Shown here: positions 534 through 57,564 of the stretch, piece by piece
Numbering within the stretch: the first letter of the stretch is position 1
How the letters are laid out: every line of letters starts with the position of its first letter
Source of the DNA: Thermoplasmata archaeon
Lineage (GTDB): Archaea; Thermoplasmatota; Thermoplasmata; Lutacidiplasmatales; UBA184
Assembly: GCA_022750155.1 (NCBI GenBank)
Contig: JAKIWG010000002.1
Location: 20,947-84,946 of the forward strand
Reading direction: 5' to 3'
DNA: 64,000 nucleotides
Translations under genes and position numbers: made by a program
The notes under the pieces: model-generated
The model's input: the letters and a program-made list of their open reading frames with translations, nothing else
Databases searched by the model: none
What the model was told of the DNA's origin: nothing

Positions 534-1757
534 TTAGGCTTTCCCCGTGGCGCTGCCGAGGCGCGACTCCACGAGGGTCCTGAGGAAGCTGGCGGGGACC
601 TCGTCCATGCTCAATCGGGCCGATTGGCCGGATCCGACCGGTTCCACCTGGACGAGTCCTTCGCGTTCGAGCTCCTTGACCGTCCGCCAGAAGGTGACCC
701 GGCTCATCGCCTTCGTCCCGTACTCCTCGGTAAGCGCCTGATAGGCGAGGCGGACGCGCTCCGTCGGGGAGGCGGTCCGGGGGCCCCGGAGGGTCCGAGC
801 GATCGCGAGCAGGACGAGCAGGGCGTTCTGGGAGAGCTCCTCGAGCTTGCCCTCCGTCATCGTCGGGAGGACGGAGCCCTTGGCCGCGCGGACGTGCTCC
901 GGAGTGATCTCGGCCGAGCCCTCCGCCTCGGCCGACCTCGCCGCGCCGACGAGGATCTCGAGGGCGAAGCGCGCGTCGCCTCCCGTGGAGGACGCCCGCG
1001 CGATCTGGTCGAGCACCTCGGGGGAATAGCTTCCCGGCCGAAGGGCGAGCTCGGCGCGGAACGCGAGGATCCGGGACAGTCCCTCGCGGTCGTACGGAGC
1101 GAGCTGAAGGCGGTGCGTGACCCCGAAGCTCGAGCGGCTCGCGGCGTCGAGGTACGGGAGGACGTCCTCCGCGGCCACCAGGAAGAGCGAGATCGATCCC
1201 AACCCGACCTCTCCGGGTCGCGAGAGCAGGTAGAGGAGCTTCGTCTCCTGGCGCACGAGGGCACTGACCTCGTCGAGGATGACGAATAGGTGGCGCGGGT
1301 TCTTGCGGATCCCTTGCTCGAAGACGTCGAGCATCTCGCTCAGCGAGTATCCCCGGTCCGGCAGGGAGACCCCTACGCCCCTCAGGAGCTGGAGCAGGAT
1401 CGTGCGGTCGTTCGACCGACGCCAGCAGTTGACGTACATCTTCATGACCGGGAGGTCGCCGATCCTTCCCGCGCGTTGGAGGTCTTCGCCGAGGCGATTG
1501 GCCAAAGCCGTCTTGCCGCTCCCGATCCCCCCGGTCAGGAGCTGGTGGTACGGCAGGCCCTTCGCCAGACCCGCCCGGTAGCGCTGGGTCAGCAGACCGA
1601 CCTCCTTCTCCCGCCCCACGAGGCGCGGGGGGAGGAACGCGGGGTCGAGTGTTTCCTCGGCCTTCAGGATCCGGTTCACGGCGCGCTCCGCTCGACCGAG
1701 ACGGAGGACGTAGATTATCTTCCCGGTCGGGCCCGGGCCCGGCGTCGCTCGATCCAT
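534..1757 (-). CDS. cdc6: Orc1/Cdc6 replication initiator, AAA+ with a winged helix
   Basis: Walker A GGIGSGKT, the VNCWRR and DEVS boxes and a C-terminal winged helix. The N-terminus (ILKAEETLDPAFLPPRLVGRE) is typical of Orc1. The start is chosen at the internal Met (MDRATPG); the longer ORF start at 1826 would overlap tmk. Confidence 0.85.
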   Translation of the reverse strand: MDRATPGPGPTGKIIYVLRLGRAERAVNRILKAEETLDPAFLPPRLVGREKEVGLLTQRYRAGLAKGLPYHQLLTGGIGSGKTALANRLGEDLQRAGRIGDLPVMKMYVNCWRRSNDRTILLQLLRGVGVSLPDRGYSLSEMLDVFEQGIRKNPRHLFVILDEVSALVRQETKLLYLLSRPGEVGLGSISLFLVAAEDVLPYLDAASRSSFGVTHRLQLAPYDREGLSRILAFRAELALRPGSYSPEVLDQIARASSTGGDARFALEILVGAARSAEAEGSAEITPEHVRAAKGSVLPTMTEGKLEELSQNALLVLLAIARTLRGPRTASPTERVRLAYQALTEEYGTKAMSRVTFWRTVKELEREGLVQVEPVGSGQSARLSMDEVPASFLRTLVESRLGSATGKA

Positions 1758-2347
1758 GGGGCCAACGCCGAGTCGACCTCCGCCGCGACGAACTCGGCCG
1801 GGCGGCTGCCGTCCACGACCAACCACCGGTGCTCGAGCGCGAGGCGTCGGTACGCCCGGTCGACCCTCGAGAGGGTCCGTCGACGCTCGAGGGGAGCGCG
1901 ACCTCTTCCCCGCGCACCCACCCGCTTCAGGGCCTCGTCGGGCGAGAGGTGAAGCAGCACGACCCGGTCGGGCACGACCGTGACGCCGCGCTGCAGGCGG
2001 TGCATCCGGGCGGCGACCCCGGCGGGCACCGCGCTCCCCTGGTAGGCGAGGGTCGAGTAGAAAGTGCGGTCCGTCAGGACGACGTCGTGCTCCGCCAACG
2101 CGGTGTCAAGCTTCGGGCGCGCGATGAGGCGGTCGAGCGTGAAGACCATGGCGCTCGCCCACGGGTCCTTCGGCGCCAGCTGTTGGGCGAGGCGACCGAG
2201 GTCGGGGTCGGAAGGCTCCCGGCGCGTGGCGACCGTCCACGTTCGGTTCCGCCACCGTCGGACGAGGCGTCGCTGAAGCGTGGACTTGCCGGACCCATCG
2301 ATCCCTTCCAGTGCGATCAGCACCCCCCGGTTCGGTCGGCGCCTCAT
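1715..2347 (-). CDS. tmk: Thymidylate kinase
   Basis: Internal start MRRRPNRGVLIALEGIDGSGKST gives the P-loop, and the rest is a dTMP-kinase fold of about 211 aa. An ATGA overlap joins it to the stop of the upstream hydrolase. Confidence 0.85.
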   Translation of the reverse strand: MRRRPNRGVLIALEGIDGSGKSTLQRRLVRRWRNRTWTVATRREPSDPDLGRLAQQLAPKDPWASAMVFTLDRLIARPKLDTALAEHDVVLTDRTFYSTLAYQGSAVPAGVAARMHRLQRGVTVVPDRVVLLHLSPDEALKRVGARGRGRAPLERRRTLSRVDRAYRRLALEHRWLVVDGSRPAEFVAAEVDSALAPWIERRRARARPGR

Positions 2348-3237
2348 CGCGTCGGCACCCCGTGGCGGACGGTGGGCAGGAATCCGTACACCTGCTCCAC
2401 CGCCTGCTCGAATGGGATCCGCAGGAGGTCGAGGTTCTCGGGCGCCGAGGCTCGGAGGGCCTTCGCCCGGCGCGCCACCGTGGCGAGGTCGAGCACCGCC
2501 CCCGGGCGTTTCGGGTCGTCGAGAAAGTCGGTCTCCCAGAACCACGGCCCCGGGTGGCGCAGGCTCCCCGCGACGGCATCGCGGGAGGCGAGGTAGGAGG
2601 GAACGATCCCGCCGAGCTCCTCGGGAGAGAGCACCGTCTTCGCGTAGTGCTTGACGAGCTTTCCCAGCGGGAACGACGCGCGGGCGGCGAACGCCGCCAA
2701 CTCCCGGTAGCCGGCCGCGTCGAGCTCTTCGCAGTGGACCACGGCCGGGCAGCCGACATCCCGGGCGATCTCGAGCGCGCTTCGGAGGACCTCGCTGCTC
2801 GCCTCGGCCAATTCGGGAGCGACGGCAAAGTGAGGACGCCCGATCTCGCCGAGGGCGACCGCCTTCCCTTCCTCCACCCATCGCCCGGCGAGTTCGAGGG
2901 CGGAACGCTGCAGTCCGACCGCAGCCTGGAGGCCGAGTGTTTCGGCAGCCCGGATCATGTCGATGGGATACGGCGCGACCGTCAGATACACCACCAGTCC
3001 GGTCTCGGCCTCCACCGCGCGCGCGATCCGCTCGGTGGTCTCGAACTGGGCGGCGTACTCCTCCAGTCGCGTCGGGGTCTTCGGGCCGTACTGCTGGGTG
3101 GCGAGGAACAGGTGCGTGCCGCCCGCGGCGCGGAATCGCTGGGCGGCCGCCACCCCCTCCCCGTCGGGCGAGAGGTGGCAGTGATGATCGACGACCGGAA
3201 GGTCGGACGGCTCGGCCACGACGCCCTCGAGGTTCAT
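2344..3237 (-). CDS. TatD-family metal-dependent hydrolase (TIM barrel)
   Basis: VVDHHCHL motif near the N-terminus, length of 297 aa, and operonic with tmk and cdc6. Confidence 0.7.
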   Translation of the reverse strand: MNLEGVVAEPSDLPVVDHHCHLSPDGEGVAAAQRFRAAGGTHLFLATQQYGPKTPTRLEEYAAQFETTERIARAVEAETGLVVYLTVAPYPIDMIRAAETLGLQAAVGLQRSALELAGRWVEEGKAVALGEIGRPHFAVAPELAEASSEVLRSALEIARDVGCPAVVHCEELDAAGYRELAAFAARASFPLGKLVKHYAKTVLSPEELGGIVPSYLASRDAVAGSLRHPGPWFWETDFLDDPKRPGAVLDLATVARRAKALRASAPENLDLLRIPFEQAVEQVYGFLPTVRHGVPTR

Positions 3238-3346
3238 TCCACCGAGGCGGGGGGGGCCCGCGGCGCGTCCGGTGGCGTGGGATGGTCGGACCGGCCGCGA
3301 ACCGTAGCGACGATCGACGCCCCCACGGGCGACATCGCCTCCGGCA

Positions 3347-3960
3347 CTATGAGCCTTCCCCGGCGGCGAGCCTTGCCTGGAACGCCCGGTCGTCGTCGTC
3401 CGGATCGGACAGCGCCCTACGCTCGAAGAAGTGTCGCAGGATGCGGCGCGTGAATCCCCACAGGACCCGACCCCGGTAGACCGTCGCGGGGACCTCGCGG
3501 GCTCCCTTCGAGGTCTCCCGGACCACCCACTCGGTCTCCGTGAGGCTCGACCTCGGAAGCCAGAAGACGTGCGCCACCTCGGTCCGGCTACGGGCCGTCG
3601 GACGGTTCGCCTGCGGCCCGAGCTGCGCGGCGAACACTCCGACGTTCATCTGGAACCGGGGGGCGTGGTCCGTACCGACATACCGCGGCGGGCCGGCAAG
3701 GTCCGCGGGACCGAGACCCACCTCCTCCCCGAGCTCTCGCACGGCCGTGGCTCGCAGGTCTGGGTCCGCCGGCTCGACGCGTCCTCCGGGGAGCGCGATC
3801 TGGCCCGAGGCGGGGTCCCCGGCCCGTACGGTCCGCTCGATCAGGAGGGTCTCGAGCTCCCGGGCCCCGTCGCGCATCAGGATCAGGACCGCGGCGTCCG
3901 CTCCTTCGGTCGGGGGACTCTCGGGGCGATGGAGGGCCAAGAGATCCGTCAGGGAGGGGA
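3347..3960 (-). CDS. NUDIX hydrolase; the start is uncertain (ORF open to 4099)
   Basis: Nudix box GGRVEPADPDLRATAVRELGEEVGL (GX5EX7REUXEEXGU). Confidence 0.65.
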
Positions 3961-53039: not shown

Positions 53040-53795
53040 GTGGTGCCACGGCGCGGCTCCGGCTCGCGTCCGATCCGGGCGGTGGTCACCGACATAGACG
53101 GCACCCTCACCGATCACGATCGACGCCTCGACACGAAGGCGGTCGAACTCCTTCGGACGCTTCACGACGCCCAGGTCCCGGTCTTCCTCGCGACCGGCAA
53201 CGTGCTTCCCATCGCCCTGGCGCTCCATCGGTCGATCGGTCTTACCGGGCCGATCGTCGCGGAGAACGGGGGGATCCTCTACGAGCGCCGGGACGGGGTC
53301 GAGCACATCGAGCGGCTCGCGAGGCGCGCGCTCGCGCTGACCCAGTTCCGTCGACTCCGCCGGCGGGGGTTCGACCTTCGGCCGTTGTTCACCGACCGAT
53401 GGCGCGAGACGGAGGTCGGGCTCGAGCCGAATGTCGAGCCCGGCGAACTCGCCCCCTTCCTCCGAGGAACCCCCGTCCGGGTGGAAGGGACGGGGTTCGC
53501 CATCCATCTCATGGAACGGGGGGCCGGGAAGTTGCCGGCGCTGCGGCGAGCGCTGCGGACCTCGGGACTGACCCTCTTCGATTGCCTCGTCGCCGGGGAC
53601 GGGGACAACGACGTGGCGATGCTCCGGGCCGCGGGCTGGGCGGTCACCTTCGCTTCGGGAAGCCCGAGGGCGAAGAAGGCGGCCGACTACGTCGCCGACG
53701 CGTCGTCCTCGCAGGGTTTCGTCGAAGCCCTTAAGGCGAGCGGGGTGGTCCCGGGCCGTGGCTCCAGTCGGAGGAGCGACGATGCTCGTCGGTAG
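53040..53795 (+). CDS. HAD-IIB phosphatase (archaeal phosphoglycolate-phosphatase-like)
   Basis: DIDGTLTD motif I, FLATGN motif II and GDGDNDVAML motif IV. Confidence 0.75.
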   Translation: MVPRRGSGSRPIRAVVTDIDGTLTDHDRRLDTKAVELLRTLHDAQVPVFLATGNVLPIALALHRSIGLTGPIVAENGGILYERRDGVEHIERLARRALALTQFRRLRRRGFDLRPLFTDRWRETEVGLEPNVEPGELAPFLRGTPVRVEGTGFAIHLMERGAGKLPALRRALRTSGLTLFDCLVAGDGDNDVAMLRAAGWAVTFASGSPRAKKAADYVADASSSQGFVEALKASGVVPGRGSSRRSDDARR

Positions 53796-53964
53796 CTGCG
53801 CACGCTGCGGCGCGCCGGCGACGCTGCGCTGCACCTTCTGCGGGCGCACGTTCTGCCACAACTGCTTGGACGCCGACGAGCGGGTCTGTCCGGAGTGTCA
53901 CGCGATGCAGAAGAAGCAGAAGGGACCGACGGGGATCCGGCTCCCCCCCTCACGCCGGGGCTGA
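53782..53964 (+). CDS. Small zinc-finger protein (4x CxxC)
   Basis: CARC..CTFC..CHNC..CPEC; it overlaps the HAD gene stop by 14 nt. Confidence 0.4.
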   Translation: MLVGSCARCGAPATLRCTFCGRTFCHNCLDADERVCPECHAMQKKQKGPTGIRLPPSRRG

Positions 53965-53991: not shown

Positions 53992-54354
53992 CTAGTATTC
54001 CGCTCCGGGGAGCACGAACGGGCCCCGCGGGGCCCCGCGCGCGACGAGGAGGAGGACGACCCCGACGAACCCGGTGACCGCTCCGAAGGCGGCGGTCGCC
54101 CAGGCGTACGTCCCGAGGTGGGTGGTGATGAGCGAGGGGCCGACGGTCCATCCACCGGACGGGGCCGTCGCGTGGAGCGCGAGATTGAGCGACAGGGCGA
54201 GGCCCCAACCGAGGACGATGAGCACCCCCCCGGCGATGAACAGGCCGATCCGGTCGTCTCCGCCCGGATCCTCGGAAGGAACGGCGGGCGTCTCCTGCAG
54301 GTCCGTCACGGGCGTCGATGGGACGATCCCATCGTAATATCCGTTGCCCCGCAC
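53992..54354 (-). CDS. Hypothetical small membrane protein
   Basis: Three hydrophobic helices. Confidence 0.4.
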   Translation of the reverse strand: MRGNGYYDGIVPSTPVTDLQETPAVPSEDPGGDDRIGLFIAGGVLIVLGWGLALSLNLALHATAPSGGWTVGPSLITTHLGTYAWATAAFGAVTGFVGVVLLLVARGAPRGPFVLPGAEY

Positions 54355-54422: not shown

Positions 54423-54719
54423 CTAGGCGAATCCGGGGACCGACTTGGAATCCTTGCTGCCCATCTTGACCGGGGCACGCCGAAGTTCCTTCGGGCACTC
54501 CACCAGCCGGACGAGCGGCGCGGACTGGACGATGTAGGCCGGGAGGCCGGTGTTCGGGTCGTGGCCGGCGCGCAGGATGTTCATGATCTCGAGCTTGACC
54601 TCGATGATCGAGCCGTCCTTCAGCTTCAGGCGGACTTTCGCATCGCCCTCGATCGCCGTATAGTCGACGATCTCGGCGTTCGATAGGTCCGGTTGGGGAC
54701 CCCCCTGTCCTCCGATCAT
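54423..54719 (-). CDS. Hypothetical 98-aa protein in the position normally held by rpl1
   Basis: An ATGA overlap with the rpl11 stop implies cotranscription. I do not recognise a family. Confidence 0.5.
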   Translation of the reverse strand: MIGGQGGPQPDLSNAEIVDYTAIEGDAKVRLKLKDGSIIEVKLEIMNILRAGHDPNTGLPAYIVQSAPLVRLVECPKELRRAPVKMGSKDSKSVPGFA

Positions 54720-55177
54720 GAGTTCCTCGCCGCGACCCGCGCCTTCAGCAGGAGCCTCGGGTCCTGGCCGTCGACGGTCAATCCCATCGAGGTGCAGGTG
54801 CCGATGACCTGGTTGACCTTCTCCTCGACGCTGCGGCCGAACAGGTCCGCGCCCTTCGCGTCGGCGATCCGGCGGACCGCCTCGAGCGATACGTCGCCCA
54901 GGACCTCGCCTTTCGGCTTCCCGGATCCCTTCTCCTTCCCGGCTTCCTTCAGGAGCAGGGCGGCGACGGGGGGTCGGCCGACCTCGAGCGTGAAGGCGCG
55001 GGTGTTCGCATCGACCTTGATCAGCACGGGGACCCGCATCCCCTCGAACTGCTTGGTCTGTTCGTTGATCTTCTGGACGACCTGTGCGACGTTCACGCCG
55101 AGCGGCCCGAGGGCCGCTCCGAGCGTCGCGCCCGCGGCCGCCTTTCCTCCCTCGACCAGCACACTGACTTCAGGCAT
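54716..55177 (-). CDS. rpl11: 50S ribosomal protein L11 (uL11)
   Basis: ...GKAAAGATLGAALGPLGVNV...PVLI.V...R.F.... uL11 N-terminal domain and linker. Confidence 0.9.
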   Translation of the reverse strand: MPEVSVLVEGGKAAAGATLGAALGPLGVNVAQVVQKINEQTKQFEGMRVPVLIKVDANTRAFTLEVGRPPVAALLLKEAGKEKGSGKPKGEVLGDVSLEAVRRIADAKGADLFGRSVEEKVNQVIGTCTSMGLTVDGQDPRLLLKARVAARNS

Positions 55178-56165
55178 TCTTGCCTCCTCCTCCCTTCTCC
55201 AGCATGCGGACGTGGTCTCCCCGCACCGTGACGGGGATCGGCACGACCGCTTCGATGAGCTCGACGGTGATCTCCTCCTTGGCCTGGTCGATCTTCCGGA
55301 CCCGGGCCTTCTCGCCCTTGAACGGCCCGGCGATGAGCTCGACGATCGCCCCTTCGACGAACCCTTCGACCGTGATCTTCGGGACGAGCAGGGGCTCGAC
55401 CTCCTTCAACGTGGTCTCCCCGGCGACGAGTCCGCGGGCCTTGCGGATCCCCTTGAGCATCTCGTGGACGCCCTCGAAGCTCATCCCCTCGGCGAAGACG
55501 TACCCGCGCAGCGCGGCCGGCACCAGCAGGGCGAAGACGACGTCCGGCTTCTCCTCGGCCCGGGCGAGGAGCGTGTCGGCGACCTCGCGCTCGTAGCCTC
55601 GGGAGGTCTTGATGGCCAGGACGGCCTGGCGGGCGACGCACGACAGGATCGATTTCGCCGGGCGGCTCCCGTCCTCCCACTGCGCGGAGAGGCGGATCTC
55701 GACCTTGTCGCCATATCGGACCCCCACCGGGGCCGTGATCTCGAAGGAGAACGGGACCGGGACTCCGGGTTGGAGGGTCACCGTCGATTGCTGCTTCGCC
55801 CCCACGATCTCCTGGAAGCTCCGCTTGCCGGGGGGGAGCCAGGAGACCGGCCACTCGGCGCCCTCGCCCGGATAGGTCGACGTGTAGGCGATCTCGACCT
55901 GAACCGTCGCGGCCCCCGCGTTGGGATGCGCGCTCGAAAGGACCACGGAGAGGGTGGTGATCGTGCCGGCGGTGACGGGGCGCATCGCGTCGTCGGCGAC
56001 CTTGAAGGAGAGCAGTCCGGGCAGCTCCGCCTTCGGCGGGGTCGGGGGAGCGGCCGTCACGGCGGTGCCGGGGGTGGCGGCCGCCGGCCCCTTTGCGGGG
56101 GCGACGGCGGCGGGGCTCTCCCCGCTCAACAGACCGATGCCCTCCTCCGGAGGATTTGCCCGCAT
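55170..56165 (-). CDS. spt5: Transcription elongation factor Spt5/NusG (NGN plus KOW) carrying an apparent ~180-aa N-terminal extension
   Basis: The C-terminal 150 aa are canonical: NGN (AVLAIKTSRGYEREVADTLLAR...GYVFAEG..FEGVHEMLKGIRKARGLV) and KOW (VELIAGPFKGEKARVRKIDQAKEEITVEL). The ORF stays open to an ATG 21 nt after secE. There is no canonical start codon immediately upstream of the NGN domain. Confidence 0.7.
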   Translation of the reverse strand: MRANPPEEGIGLLSGESPAAVAPAKGPAAATPGTAVTAAPPTPPKAELPGLLSFKVADDAMRPVTAGTITTLSVVLSSAHPNAGAATVQVEIAYTSTYPGEGAEWPVSWLPPGKRSFQEIVGAKQQSTVTLQPGVPVPFSFEITAPVGVRYGDKVEIRLSAQWEDGSRPAKSILSCVARQAVLAIKTSRGYEREVADTLLARAEEKPDVVFALLVPAALRGYVFAEGMSFEGVHEMLKGIRKARGLVAGETTLKEVEPLLVPKITVEGFVEGAIVELIAGPFKGEKARVRKIDQAKEEITVELIEAVVPIPVTVRGDHVRMLEKGGGGKNA

Positions 56166-56186
56166 GGATGACCGTCCCGCCGATCC

Positions 56187-56432
56187 CTACAGGCCCTGGA
56201 AGTAGTTCGTCCAGAGCCAGGGGCCGGCCTGAGAGAAGAAGATGTAGATCATGAACCCGACGGAGCCGATGATCACGGCGCCGAGCGCGGTGACCTCGAG
56301 GACCTTGACGTACTCGTCGACGGCGGGCTTGCGCGCCATCCGCAGGATGCGCCCGTACTTCCCGTGCCCGACGTTGCGTAGCCGCCCGTCGAACTGGTCC
56401 TGTACTTGCCGTGCGCGGTCGAGGAATGCCAT
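56187..56432 (-). CDS. secE: Preprotein translocase subunit SecE (Sec61 gamma)
   Basis: LRMARKP..DEY motif followed by a single TM helix; conserved position between ftsZ and spt5. Confidence 0.8.
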   Translation of the reverse strand: MAFLDRARQVQDQFDGRLRNVGHGKYGRILRMARKPAVDEYVKVLEVTALGAVIIGSVGFMIYIFFSQAGPWLWTNYFQGL

Positions 56433-56439
56433 GGTGCAC

Positions 56440-57564
56440 CTAACGGACGAGGTCGATCTCCGGACCGGACTTGCGGGCCGAGGCAGCCCCGCCGGGGGCC
56501 CCTCCGAAAATCTGGGGGGATTTAACTCCGGTGACCACCAACATCACGCGGATCGTGCTCTGCATCGTCGGGTCGACGGCGGCCCCCCAGATGATCCGTG
56601 CCGTCGGGGAGATCGCTTTCTGGACGACCTCGGCGGCCTTCTGCGCCTCGCTGACGGTCATGTCCGGGCCGCCCGTCACGTTGATGAGGGCGCCGGTGGC
56701 CCCCGCGATGTCCACGCGAAGGAGCGGGGAGTTGATCGCCTCGAGGACCGCGTCCTCGGCCCGGTTGTCGCTTTCGGACTCGCCGATGCCGATGAGGGCG
56801 ACGCCGCCGCCCTTCATGATCGTCCGAAGGTCGTTGAAATCCAGGTTGACGAGGCCGGGGCGGGTGATGATCTCGGTGATGCCCCGGATGGCACGGGCGA
56901 GCACGGAGTCGGCCACCTTGAATGCGGTTTGGATCGGTAGACGGGGCACGAGCTCCAGGAGACGGTCGTTGGGGATGGTGATCACGGTGTCGATCGTCGA
57001 ACGCAGCCGCTCGAGTCCCCACATCGCGTTCTCGGCACGGACGAGCCCCTCGGAGGTGAACGGTAGCGTGCAGACGGCGATCGTGAGCGGATTGCCGCCG
57101 TTCGCGTCCTTGGCGAGCTGGGCGACCACCGGCGCCGAACCGGTCCCGGTGCCTCCCCCCAGACCGAGGGTGATGAACACCATGTCGCTGTCCGAGAGGG
57201 CCTTCTTGAGCTCCTCCTCGGCCTCGTGGGCCGCCTGCTCCCCGACCTGGGGGAGTGCGCCCGCCCCGAGACCGCGGGTCAGCCTGCGCCCCAGGAGGAT
57301 CTTCTTGGGGGCATGGATGGCGAGCAGGTGCTGAGCGTCGGTGTTGCACGCGACCATGTCGGCGCCGGAGAGTCCCTCCTCCGCGAGCCGATTGATCGTG
57401 TTGCATCCTCCGCCCCCGCAGCCTACGACCTTGATGTTGGTCTTCAGGGAGGCAAGGACCGACTCCAGTTCGGCGTCGTCCGCCCCGGGAGCCGGGGGGC
57501 TCGGCACGCCGCGCTTGGGGTCTTGCGGAAGGTGGGAGAGAATCTCCTGGGCTAGCGGTCGCAT
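56440..57564 (-). CDS. ftsZ: Cell division GTPase FtsZ
   Basis: VVGCGGGGCN, GGGTGTGSAPV tubulin signature and NVDFAD-like motif. Confidence 0.9.
   Translation of the reverse strand: MRPLAQEILSHLPQDPKRGVPSPPAPGADDAELESVLASLKTNIKVVGCGGGGCNTINRLAEEGLSGADMVACNTDAQHLLAIHAPKKILLGRRLTRGLGAGALPQVGEQAAHEAEEELKKALSDSDMVFITLGLGGGTGTGSAPVVAQLAKDANGGNPLTIAVCTLPFTSEGLVRAENAMWGLERLRSTIDTVITIPNDRLLELVPRLPIQTAFKVADSVLARAIRGITEIITRPGLVNLDFNDLRTIMKGGGVALIGIGESESDNRAEDAVLEAINSPLLRVDIAGATGALINVTGGPDMTVSEAQKAAEVVQKAISPTARIIWGAAVDPTMQSTIRVMLVVTGVKSPQIFGGAPGGAASARKSGPEIDLVR

Follow-up and report, generated by a model that had tools for sequence, protein, structure and literature searches.

Does this archaeal locus encode an Spt5 of twice the usual size, or has the start of its spt5 gene been called too far upstream? 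No transcription factor other than Spt5/NusG is conserved across all cellular life, and the archaeal version of this factor is regarded as a minimal two-domain form (PMC7819879, PMC7593976). In the window, i.e., the whole 64-kb stretch of DNA analysed here, the spt5 open reading frame starts with an ATG at position 56165 and predicts a product of 331 aa. An earlier note, made from the sequence alone, had left two alternatives: a new N-terminal domain, or a non-standard start. Homologues, open frames, a conserved start, selection and AF2 models all supported the former, and the extension is coding, conserved, folded and fused to Spt5 in a housekeeping locus.

The spt5 locus and its canonical core

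The gene order is ftsZ-secE-spt5-rpl11, with all four genes on the minus strand (Table 1). This is the cluster recognised in the earlier note, and its members were confirmed by Pfam and NCBIfam models (for SecE, TIGR00327 scored 46 bits, above its cutoff of 36.2). Only 21 nt separate the TAG stop of secE from the spt5 ATG, and at its other end spt5 shares 8 nt with rpl11, at the stop of the former and the ATG of the latter. A conserved 98-aa protein is also encoded nearby, at 54423-54719. With secE and rpl11 as its direct neighbours, the window gene is the housekeeping spt5 of a Lutacidiplasmatales-type (TMEG) Thermoplasmata archaeon, a soil archaeon belonging to a clade that is uncultured throughout (PMC9287336). 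A protein 100% identical to it (P0001) is annotated as 'transcription elongation factor Spt5 [Thermoplasmata archaeon]'. We found neither an Spt4 gene nor a P-stalk-like tail within the 64-kb window, a span too small for these absences to be informative.

Table 1 Features of the long spt5 gene and of its neighbours in the window
Feature	Coordinates	Strand	Residues	Details
ftsZ	56440..57564	-		upstream of secE; Pfam Tubulin and FtsZ_C
secE	56187..56432	-		81 aa; directly upstream of spt5; NCBIfam secE models
spt5, long form	55170..56165	-		open reading frame of 331 codons and TGA stop at 55170-55172
Start Met and conserved N-terminal peptide	56121..56165	-	1-15	MRANPPEEGIGLLSG
Disordered Pro/Ala/Thr-rich spacer	56022..56120	-	16-48
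Nine-strand Ig-like beta-sandwich	55626..56021	-	49-180
NGN domain	55380..55625	-	181-262	Pfam Spt5-NGN at 184-260
Linker, KOW and Gly-rich C-terminal tail	55173..55379	-	263-331	PF00467 at 272-302
rpl11	54716..55177	-		directly downstream of spt5; Pfam Ribosomal_L11_N and Ribosomal_L11

The C-terminal half of the protein is that of an ordinary archaeal Spt5. The archaeal Spt5 model TIGR00405 (145 positions) matched residues 184-324 with 147 bits (cutoff 70), and the NGN domain is followed by a single C-terminal KOW (PF00467, E 1e-6), the two together spanning residues 181-324. Canonical archaeal Spt5 proteins (TIGR00405; 3p8b, 9bct and 4zn1/3lpe) have 147-152 aa and begin with NGN, in agreement with the length of about 150 aa given in the earlier note, whereas the window protein has 331 aa and its NGN begins at residue 181. 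From residues 2-5 onward, the proteins of P. furiosus (3p8b), T. kodakarensis (9bct) and M. jannaschii (4zn1) align with its residues 181/182-324, so that, as had been noticed, NGN and KOW occupy the C-terminal half of the 331-codon frame behind an extension of 180 residues, made up of a peptide, a spacer and an Ig-like domain. Both structure alignment and AF2 showed an uninterrupted NGN, with the extra domain preceding its first strand.

This core is nearly invariant in the family (median dN/dS of 0.07) and, for this reason, binding to the polymerase clamp, pairing with Spt4 and the interactions of KOW have presumably been retained. NGN Glu-192, invariant in the family, is aligned with the Glu of the GQE motif of P. 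furiosus, which we take to be the Spt4-contacting residue; its conservation suggests that the long Spt5 still uses Spt4. Contact with Spt4 is made by a conserved Glu of NGN (PMC7593976).

Coding status and start of the extension

As stated in the earlier note, the frame remains open back to the ATG located 21 nt after the secE stop. Since the TAG of secE is itself an in-frame stop 8 codons upstream of this ATG, M1 is the first possible start. Other in-frame ATG, GTG or TTG codons occur at positions 13, 36, 61, 74, 121, 129 and 147, the next one being found only at codon 215. The closest to NGN is, as previously observed, the GTG 34 codons before it, which falls within an invariant motif, APVGVRYGD. 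The open frame by itself is weak evidence for coding, because a run of 180 open codons has a chance probability of ~0.025 in DNA of 69% G+C and many long spurious ORFs are listed for the window; it is the comparative data that carry the case.

Comparison with related Spt5 orthologues, proposed in the earlier note, retrieved >120 full-length homologues of 325-337 aa, with 72-88% identity and 97-100% query coverage. The extension is encoded in at least 155 GTDB species representatives, the carriers being metagenome-assembled genomes of Lutacidiplasmatales/TMEG-type Thermoplasmata. A stop codon in this interval in related genomes had been named as one observation that would overturn the idea of a new domain, but the frame ran uninterrupted from the extension into NGN in all 80 fetched loci. 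In the 63 loci with a callable start, the secE stop was always found 0-35 nt upstream of the spt5 start. The start codon is conserved, as is the N-terminal motif 7-8 residues further on, whereas the family alignment contains no conserved start codon at the NGN boundary (consensus ARQAVLAIK). The extension, which includes the segment ANPPEEGIGLLSGESPAAVAPAK, resembles the core in third-position G+C content (GC3 of 0.91 and 0.93, respectively). Median dN/dS values were 0.39 for the N-terminal motif, 0.79 for the spacer and 0.41 for the sandwich, and the sandwich reached 0.12 in the comparison with the closest relative, indicating purifying selection. On conservation, dN/dS and GC3, we rejected a chance open frame in high-G+C DNA.

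Could the 180 upstream codons nevertheless be a separate or untranslated segment, with a ~150-aa Spt5 whose translation begins at the NGN boundary with a non-standard start? The start of canonical archaeal Spt5 at NGN would agree with such an arrangement, as would the tendency of high G+C to keep frames open by chance. However, no stop separates the two parts in the 80 loci or in the distant homologues, the nearest start codon lies well before NGN and none is conserved there, and the extension is under selection at the protein level. Furthermore, the last strand of the sandwich is predicted to continue straight into the first strand of NGN, and no full-length copy of the domain standing alone emerged when 1.84 billion representatives were scanned exhaustively with an HMMER profile. 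The frame, start and selection data therefore largely refute both initiation at an internal or non-standard codon and an independent gene upstream, and we consider that the synthesis of two products is extremely improbable.

Structure and distribution of the N-terminal module

The module has three parts. Its N-terminal peptide, of acidic-hydrophobic character, has the core [DE]-[EG]-I-G-L-L-[ST]-G and, across the family, the consensus M-x-G-x-P-x-[DE]-[ED]-G-I-G-L-[LI]-[ST]-G-E. GIGL is present in 118 of the 121 full-length N-termini, one subclade has the variant EEIGLLSG, and distant homologues start with MGLFGD, MGLFDD or MGLLDD. The Pro/Ala/Thr-rich linker described in the earlier note corresponds to the spacer, which in the window protein contains 33% A, 24% P and 12% T and which measures 19-39 aa (median 34) in the family, with 30% P and 28% A. 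Its sequence is nearly free to vary (dN/dS ~0.8), and its length and composition are kept. Residues 1-48 are predicted to be disordered and have a pI of 4.9, with pLDDT values of 40-45 for the peptide in both AF2 models and <55 for the spacer. AF2 gave no support for donor-strand complementation or any other docking of the peptide in cis, which fits a partner in trans without proving one.

The third part is the beta-rich segment that had been read from the sequence. The structure prediction of the first 180 residues suggested in the earlier note gave a confident beta-sandwich of nine strands (residues 52-178; pLDDT 84-95, about 90). Its last strand (170-178) is followed by a two-residue turn and then by the first strand of NGN (181-187), with pLDDT 92-93 across the junction (170-190). 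Since the last strand turns directly into NGN, the sandwich is probably held rigidly against it. Two loops are conserved, YTSTYPGEGAEWPVxW..PPGKR (94-115) and APVGVRYGD (145-153). The latter, the most conserved, most likely lies at the end of the sandwich where the chain exits to NGN, as the predicted strands 137-144, 154-163 and 170-178 are consecutive and joined by short loops. With a net charge of 0 and a pI of 7.1, the sandwich is not basic, which lends no support to nucleic-acid binding.

Structural neighbours of the domain were Ig-like sandwiches, including the pilins CooA, CfaB and FimA. A chaperone-usher pilin-type incomplete Ig fold, completed in cis by the N-terminal peptide as donor strand, was rejected, as both AF2 models predict a complete and confident sandwich without the peptide. 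Such a generic fold points to no ligand, and the much faster evolution of the domain compared with the core suggests that its role may be peripheral.

Residues 1-180 could not be assigned to any known family. In the window protein, residues 1-183 had no match in Pfam or NCBIfam, and the E-set Pfam models gave none at their gathering thresholds. Only distant members showed borderline or sub-threshold matches to FixG_C (E 1.4e-6) and NPCBM_assoc (E 1.4e-5); P0156 obtained 24.7 bits with the former (cutoff 25.6) and 23.6 with the latter (cutoff 24.4), and E-set matches were found in only 2 of 7 diverse members. With the E-set families FixG_C, NPCBM_assoc (NEW3) and DUF11, the domain shares the beta-sandwich fold and a P-x-G-x-x-Y-G motif before the last strands. 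Members of these families typically occur outside the cytoplasm, as parts of enzymes and surface proteins, whereas the domain studied here is a cytoplasmic one, joined to a transcription factor. We found no described N-terminal domain of archaeal Spt5 in the literature searched or among solved structures.

The architecture recurs in the Spt5 of a few distant low-GC Thermoplasmata, where the gene again lies in an ftsZ-secE-spt5-rpl11 locus (L081-L085). Three of these long proteins (P0152, P0163 and P0156; 36-41% identity) carry the same three-part module. In distant homologues the module retains only 20-32% identity, with GLF/GLL and acidic residues still recognisable. Because it is shared by these distant species, the architecture appears to be old and maintained. 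Neither the conserved N-terminal peptide nor the occurrence in low-GC Thermoplasmata had been mentioned in the earlier note. The exhaustive HMMER scan with the N-terminal module retrieved only 17 matches. All the informative ones were Spt5 of Thermoplasmata, and three, with E of 1e-5 to 6e-4, were large and repetitive (rich in Ig repeats in two cases) and uninformative. Short matches of 103-218 aa look like protein fragments, and several are annotated as 'partial'. Word-index searches with N-terminal queries yielded mostly fragments and, oddly, failed to recover the full-length homologues.

Possible roles of the extra domain and peptide

The nearest analogues of this arrangement are the extra domains of the NusG proteins of Thermotoga maritima (DII, 2xhc) and Aquifex aeolicus (insert, 1m1g). 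In all of them a lineage-specific folded accessory domain has been added to the universal factor, but the bacterial domains sit inside NGN, whereas that of the long Spt5 is N-terminal to it. A comparison of the sandwich with DII and with the Aquifex insert found no structural likeness, and we rejected a structural kinship between them. Eukaryotic Spt5 also has a disordered acidic stretch ahead of NGN (PMC7819879), comparable to residues 1-48 of the archaeal protein. Nevertheless, the archaeal stretch is short, rich in Pro and Ala and followed by an Ig-like domain that eukaryotic Spt5 does not have at that place, and we detected no sequence relationship between the two regions.

The explanation that we favour, held as a whole with moderate confidence, is that translation from the ATG at 56165 produces a 331-aa Spt5 in which a lineage-specific three-part module of 180 residues stands ahead of the NGN-KOW core and serves in docking and peptide capture. 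NGN would carry the sandwich to the clamp/cleft region of RNA polymerase as an accessory docking surface, through which Spt5 may gain additional contacts with polymerase subunits or with a partner bound to the polymerase. Tethered by its flexible arm, the N-terminal peptide would serve as a short linear motif that captures another partner in the vicinity of the elongation complex. By analogy, the docking proposal would be supported by the precedent of T. maritima DII, which binds RNA polymerase subunits and dsDNA (PMC5224480) and has been proposed to help recruitment to the elongation complex (PMC5224480; PMC7819879). It might even be that the long Spt5 is a coupling hub, its rigidly held sandwich and its IGLL peptide bringing a specific second machine to each RNA polymerase engaged in elongation. 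We regard this extended version as doubtful; the candidate partners would be translation GTPases or the ribosome, the termination factor FttA/aCPSF1, a chromatin protein and the membrane.

Other roles can be weighed against this one. The sandwich could be an accessory that binds nucleic acids, like DII or the Aquifex insert, holding on to the upstream DNA duplex or to nascent RNA and thereby stabilising Spt5 on the elongation complex. Indeed, non-specific nucleic-acid binding is known for both tmNusG-DII and the aaNusG insert, with DII modelled beside the upstream dsDNA (PMC5224480), and NGN adjoins DNA in bacteria, archaea and eukaryotes alike (PMC7593976). Nonetheless, the neutral sandwich does not favour such binding, and we find this role unlikely. 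A mainly structural one, in which the module would stabilise NGN, perhaps buttressing or partly replacing Spt4, and would not itself engage any partner, the tail being a relic of the ancestral protein that was fused, would agree with the rigid and confidently predicted junction, with the probable NGN-proximal position of the most conserved loop and with the rapid evolution of the domain. Yet an N-terminal motif that is almost universal in the family and still recognisable in distant homologues would be difficult to account for if it bound nothing, and the invariant Glu-192 suggests that Spt4 has not been dispensed with. We thus judge a purely structural appendage rather improbable.

The tethered peptide might also mimic another tail motif, coupling transcription to a different machine. 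The ribosomal P-stalk has a GLxxLF tail that recruits translation GTPases, and ESCRT-III N-termini provide the membrane-inserting MGLFG-type motif. The resemblance is one of sequence only (an acidic run, G-I-G-L-L or G-L-F, and a long flexible Ala/Pro or Lys/Glu spacer). However, stalk motifs are C-terminal whereas that of Spt5 is N-terminal, and a motif so short is likely to be matched by chance. We consider mimicry highly unlikely.

Under the favoured combination of docking and peptide capture, as under any role of the module, a widespread soil and peat archaeal lineage with at least 155 species-level genomes has doubled in size what is apparently its only housekeeping Spt5. It constitutes a natural experiment in the grafting of accessory domains onto a core elongation factor and, in archaea, parallels both the DII domains of bacteria and the N-terminal region found in eukaryotes. 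The 180 residues merit a family model of their own, lest these genes be read as having mis-called starts, and the conserved peptide motif offers a concrete handle for finding partners. If the long Spt5 were indeed a coupling hub, it would have, across a whole archaeal order, a role without counterpart in the two-domain archaeal Spt5 and would have converged in function on the regulatory N-terminus of eukaryotic Spt5.

The spt5 gene and its neighbours

In the protein encoded by the spt5 ORF of the window, Pfam assigned residues 184-260 to Spt5-NGN and residues 272-302 to KOW, and the archaeal Spt5 equivalog of NCBIfam (TIGR00405, 145 positions) matched residues 184-324 at 147 bits. Neither Pfam nor NCBIfam searches returned a match for residues 1-183. 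Solved archaeal Spt5 proteins are 147-152 aa long (P. furiosus 3p8b, T. kodakarensis 9bct, M. jannaschii 4zn1) and align from their residues 2-5 onto residues 181/182-324. Thus NGN is normally where archaeal Spt5 starts, as an earlier note on this DNA had presumed. By core and locus the window protein is a member of this family, but it departs from the usual ~150-aa architecture starting at NGN.

We also confirmed that the spt5 ATG lies 21 nt past the secE TAG. Since this TAG is the nearest in-frame stop for spt5, M1 is the first possible start. In-frame ATG, GTG or TTG triplets occur at codons 1, 13, 36, 61, 74, 121, 129 and 147 and then only at 215; GTG-147, 34 codons upstream, is indeed the nearest start-type codon before NGN.

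Features of the spt5 region in the window
Feature	Position	Strand	Remarks
ftsZ	56440-57564	-	neighbour of spt5
secE	56187-56432	-	neighbour of spt5
spt5	55170-56165	-	331 codons (ORF listing)
rpl11	54716-55177	-	neighbour of spt5
492-aa ORF	54693-56171	+	overlaps spt5 in another frame
448-aa ORF	55093-56439	-	overlaps spt5 in another frame
98-aa ORF	54423-54719	-	start overlaps rpl11 stop (ATGA)
120-aa ORF	53992-54354		no family match
68-aa Cys-rich ORF	53758-53964	+	CARCG...CTFCG...CHNC...CPEC
HAD-family hydrolase gene	53040-53795		

The spt5 stop and the rpl11 ATG (55175-55177) overlap by 8 nt. At its C-terminus Spt5 has a Gly-rich tail, K-G-G-G-G-K-N-A, whose coding sequence is AAGGGAGGAGGAGGCAAGAATGCC (55170-55196, minus strand); the Gly codons in it constitute a Shine-Dalgarno-like run, GGAGGAGGAGG, 5-8 nt before that ATG. 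This dual use may partly account for the conservation of a GGGKSGG tail in all Spt5 homologues of our alignments. The 98-aa ORF, which holds the position where rpl1 usually follows, had no Pfam or NCBIfam match, but of 81 related loci searched 72 conserve it, at 64-92% identity; it appears to be an uncharacterised small protein of the spt5-rpl11 operon in the Lutacidiplasmatales-type clade. Three distant long-Spt5 loci (L081-L083) lack it downstream of rpl11, and in two others (L084 and L085) no rpl11 was called downstream of the long spt5. L084 also carries two tandem ftsZ genes, instead of one, upstream of secE-spt5 (1142-3474). The Cys-rich ORF, flanked by the hydrolase gene and the 120-aa ORF, showed sub-threshold B-box/zinc-ribbon matches (ANCHR-like_BBOX, E 3e-4).

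Coding status and architecture of the N-terminal extension

An open frame is by itself little proof of coding in this window (69% G+C): the chance of 180 codons staying open, computed from its base composition, is ~0.025, and the ORF listing includes many spurious, overlapping frames 300-500 aa long. The 492-aa and 448-aa ORFs that overlap spt5 are such high-G+C by-products and not genes, with translations rich in Arg, Gly and Pro; it is the spt5 frame that is conserved.

Comparative data are decisive. A protein search retrieved over 120 homologues 325-337 aa long, with 72-88% identity across 97-100% of the query, all from Thermoplasmata MAGs (one labelled Candidatus Lutacidiplasmatales). When one genome per GTDB species was scanned, 155 species representatives proved to encode the extension, among them Candidatus Lutacidiplasma silvani. 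Extension and NGN-KOW core share one uninterrupted frame in 80/80 fetched loci, and the stop codon that the earlier note had envisaged within this interval in related genomes is absent. An internal or non-standard start near NGN, one of the two options then proposed, and a separate upstream gene are both essentially refuted. In the 63 loci with complete genes, spt5 starts 0-35 nt beyond the secE stop (54 ATG, 7 GTG and 2 TTG). By Nei-Gojobori estimates over these 63 genes, median dN/dS rises from 0.07 in the core to 0.39 in residues 1-15, 0.41 in the beta region (0.12 against the closest relative) and 0.79 in the spacer. The extension has a GC3 of 0.91, the core one of 0.93. The homologues, shared frame, start position, dN/dS and GC3 argue strongly that the extension is translated and under selection, bearing out the ~180-residue extension initially described. 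Frameshifted versions of the long spt5 in several database entries (P0136, P0145, P0149) and in one long-read MAG locus (L025) contain out-of-frame Arg/Pro-rich stretches within otherwise matching proteins and look like assembly errors rather than pseudogenes.

Alignments and two AlphaFold2 runs, one on the N-terminal 180 residues (31 sequences) and one on the full-length protein (42 sequences), delineated three parts, in agreement with the linker and beta-rich segment first noticed. The N-terminal peptide has the consensus M-x-G-x-P-x-[DE]-[ED]-G-I-G-L-[LI]-[ST]-G-E, with GIGL in 118 of 121 full-length N-termini and an EEIGLLSG variant in one subclade. Its pLDDT is 40-45 in both models and, therefore, no docking back onto Spt5 is predicted. 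A disordered spacer of 19-39 residues follows (median 34; 30% Pro, 28% Ala), its sequence almost unconstrained in evolution. The third part is a predicted beta-sandwich of nine strands across residues 52-178 (pLDDT 84-95), with two strongly conserved loops, YTSTYPGEGAEWPVxW..PPGKR (94-115) and APVGVRYGD (145-153). Only a two-residue turn separates its last strand (170-178) from NGN strand 1 (181-187), with pLDDT 92-93 over the junction; given this lack of a linker, the sandwich should sit rigidly on NGN. Strands 137-144, 154-163 and 170-178 are consecutive in the model, with short loops between them, and from this strand order the APVGVRYGD loop should lie at the NGN-proximal end. The homologues and the predicted fold joined to NGN favour the other original option, a new N-terminal domain, and the module is almost certainly real and fused to Spt5.

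Distant homologues and the fold of the sandwich

When 1.84 billion representative proteins were scanned exhaustively with an HMMER profile of the N-terminal module, there were only 17 hits; the sole informative matches were Spt5 proteins of Thermoplasmata/Thermoplasmatota, and no stand-alone full-length copy of the sandwich domain turned up. The short hits, part of which had their ends checked, seem to be fragments or to come from frameshifted assemblies. Informative matches outside the close clade originate from low-GC Thermoplasmata or Thermoplasmatota MAGs and are Spt5 proteins rich in Lys and Glu: P0152 (321 aa), P0153 (326 aa), P0156 (308 aa) and P0151/P0163 (305 aa). Identity in the N-terminal module is only 20-32%, and yet they keep the same layout: an MGLFGD, MGLFDD or MGLLDD N-terminus, a charged Pro-rich spacer, a sandwich with (T)EGAEW and P-x-G-x-R-Y-G-D motifs, and NGN and KOW last. 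The ftsZ-secE-spt5-rpl11 context also surrounds these distant genes; by this locus, the long form is the housekeeping gene and not a paralogue. These sequences also put the fusion before the Lutacidiplasmatales radiation. The host is most likely a member of this group, formerly the Terrestrial Miscellaneous Euryarchaeota Group, uncultured archaea of ~69% G+C from acidic soils and peat (PMC9287336).

Two distant members gave borderline Pfam matches, to FixG_C (E 1.4e-6) and NPCBM_assoc/NEW3 (E 1.4e-5), a loose placement of the sandwich within the E-set Ig-like superfamily; the Spt5 of the window itself is below threshold for every Pfam family in this region. One SRA-derived protein from the profile scan (P0150, 213 aa, with no contig) lacks NGN, its KOW domain coming straight after the N-terminal motif, spacer and Ig-like domain; either an assembly chimera or a genuine NGN-less variant could explain it.

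Possible roles of the N-terminal module

In every NusG/Spt5, NGN attaches to the clamp coiled-coil and spans the cleft of the elongating polymerase (PMC7593976); a domain anchored on NGN strand 1 must go to that site as well. In our preferred reading, the sandwich would offer an accessory docking surface for polymerase subunits or a polymerase-bound partner, and the IGLL peptide, on its flexible arm, might act as a tethered short linear motif capturing a second partner. The precedent is DII, the extra domain of T. maritima NusG, which binds RNAP subunits and dsDNA and has been proposed to help recruitment to the elongation complex (PMC5224480, PMC7819879). We consider the docking mechanism a tentative proposal with a little less than an even chance of being correct. 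The window Spt5 would work somewhat like those bacterial NusG proteins that carry extra domains but does not belong among them: its domain is N-terminal whereas theirs are inserted, the folds do not match, and lineage and habitat differ.

The same precedent would suggest that the sandwich is a DII-like nucleic-acid binder, but this reading is weakened by its neutral charge (pI 7.1) and its lack of structural similarity to NusG extra domains. A purely structural buttress is likewise weakened, here by the near-invariance of the terminal motif, kept even in distant homologues. The N-terminal peptide also bears some resemblance to the tail of the ribosomal stalk and to N-termini that insert into membranes, and might mimic one of them.

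Public annotation already names these 331-aa proteins 'transcription elongation factor Spt5' and, therefore, the gene model is not new. The N-terminal domain and the three-part organisation appear undescribed: an N-terminal domain of archaeal Spt5 is described nowhere in the literature searched, which included a 2026 survey of elongation-factor domains in ~40 archaeal proteomes (PMC13289920) and a GTDB-wide NusG/Spt5 survey (PMC7593976). The long Spt5 of these uncultured hosts is widespread and cleanly defined, and would surprise a transcription specialist.
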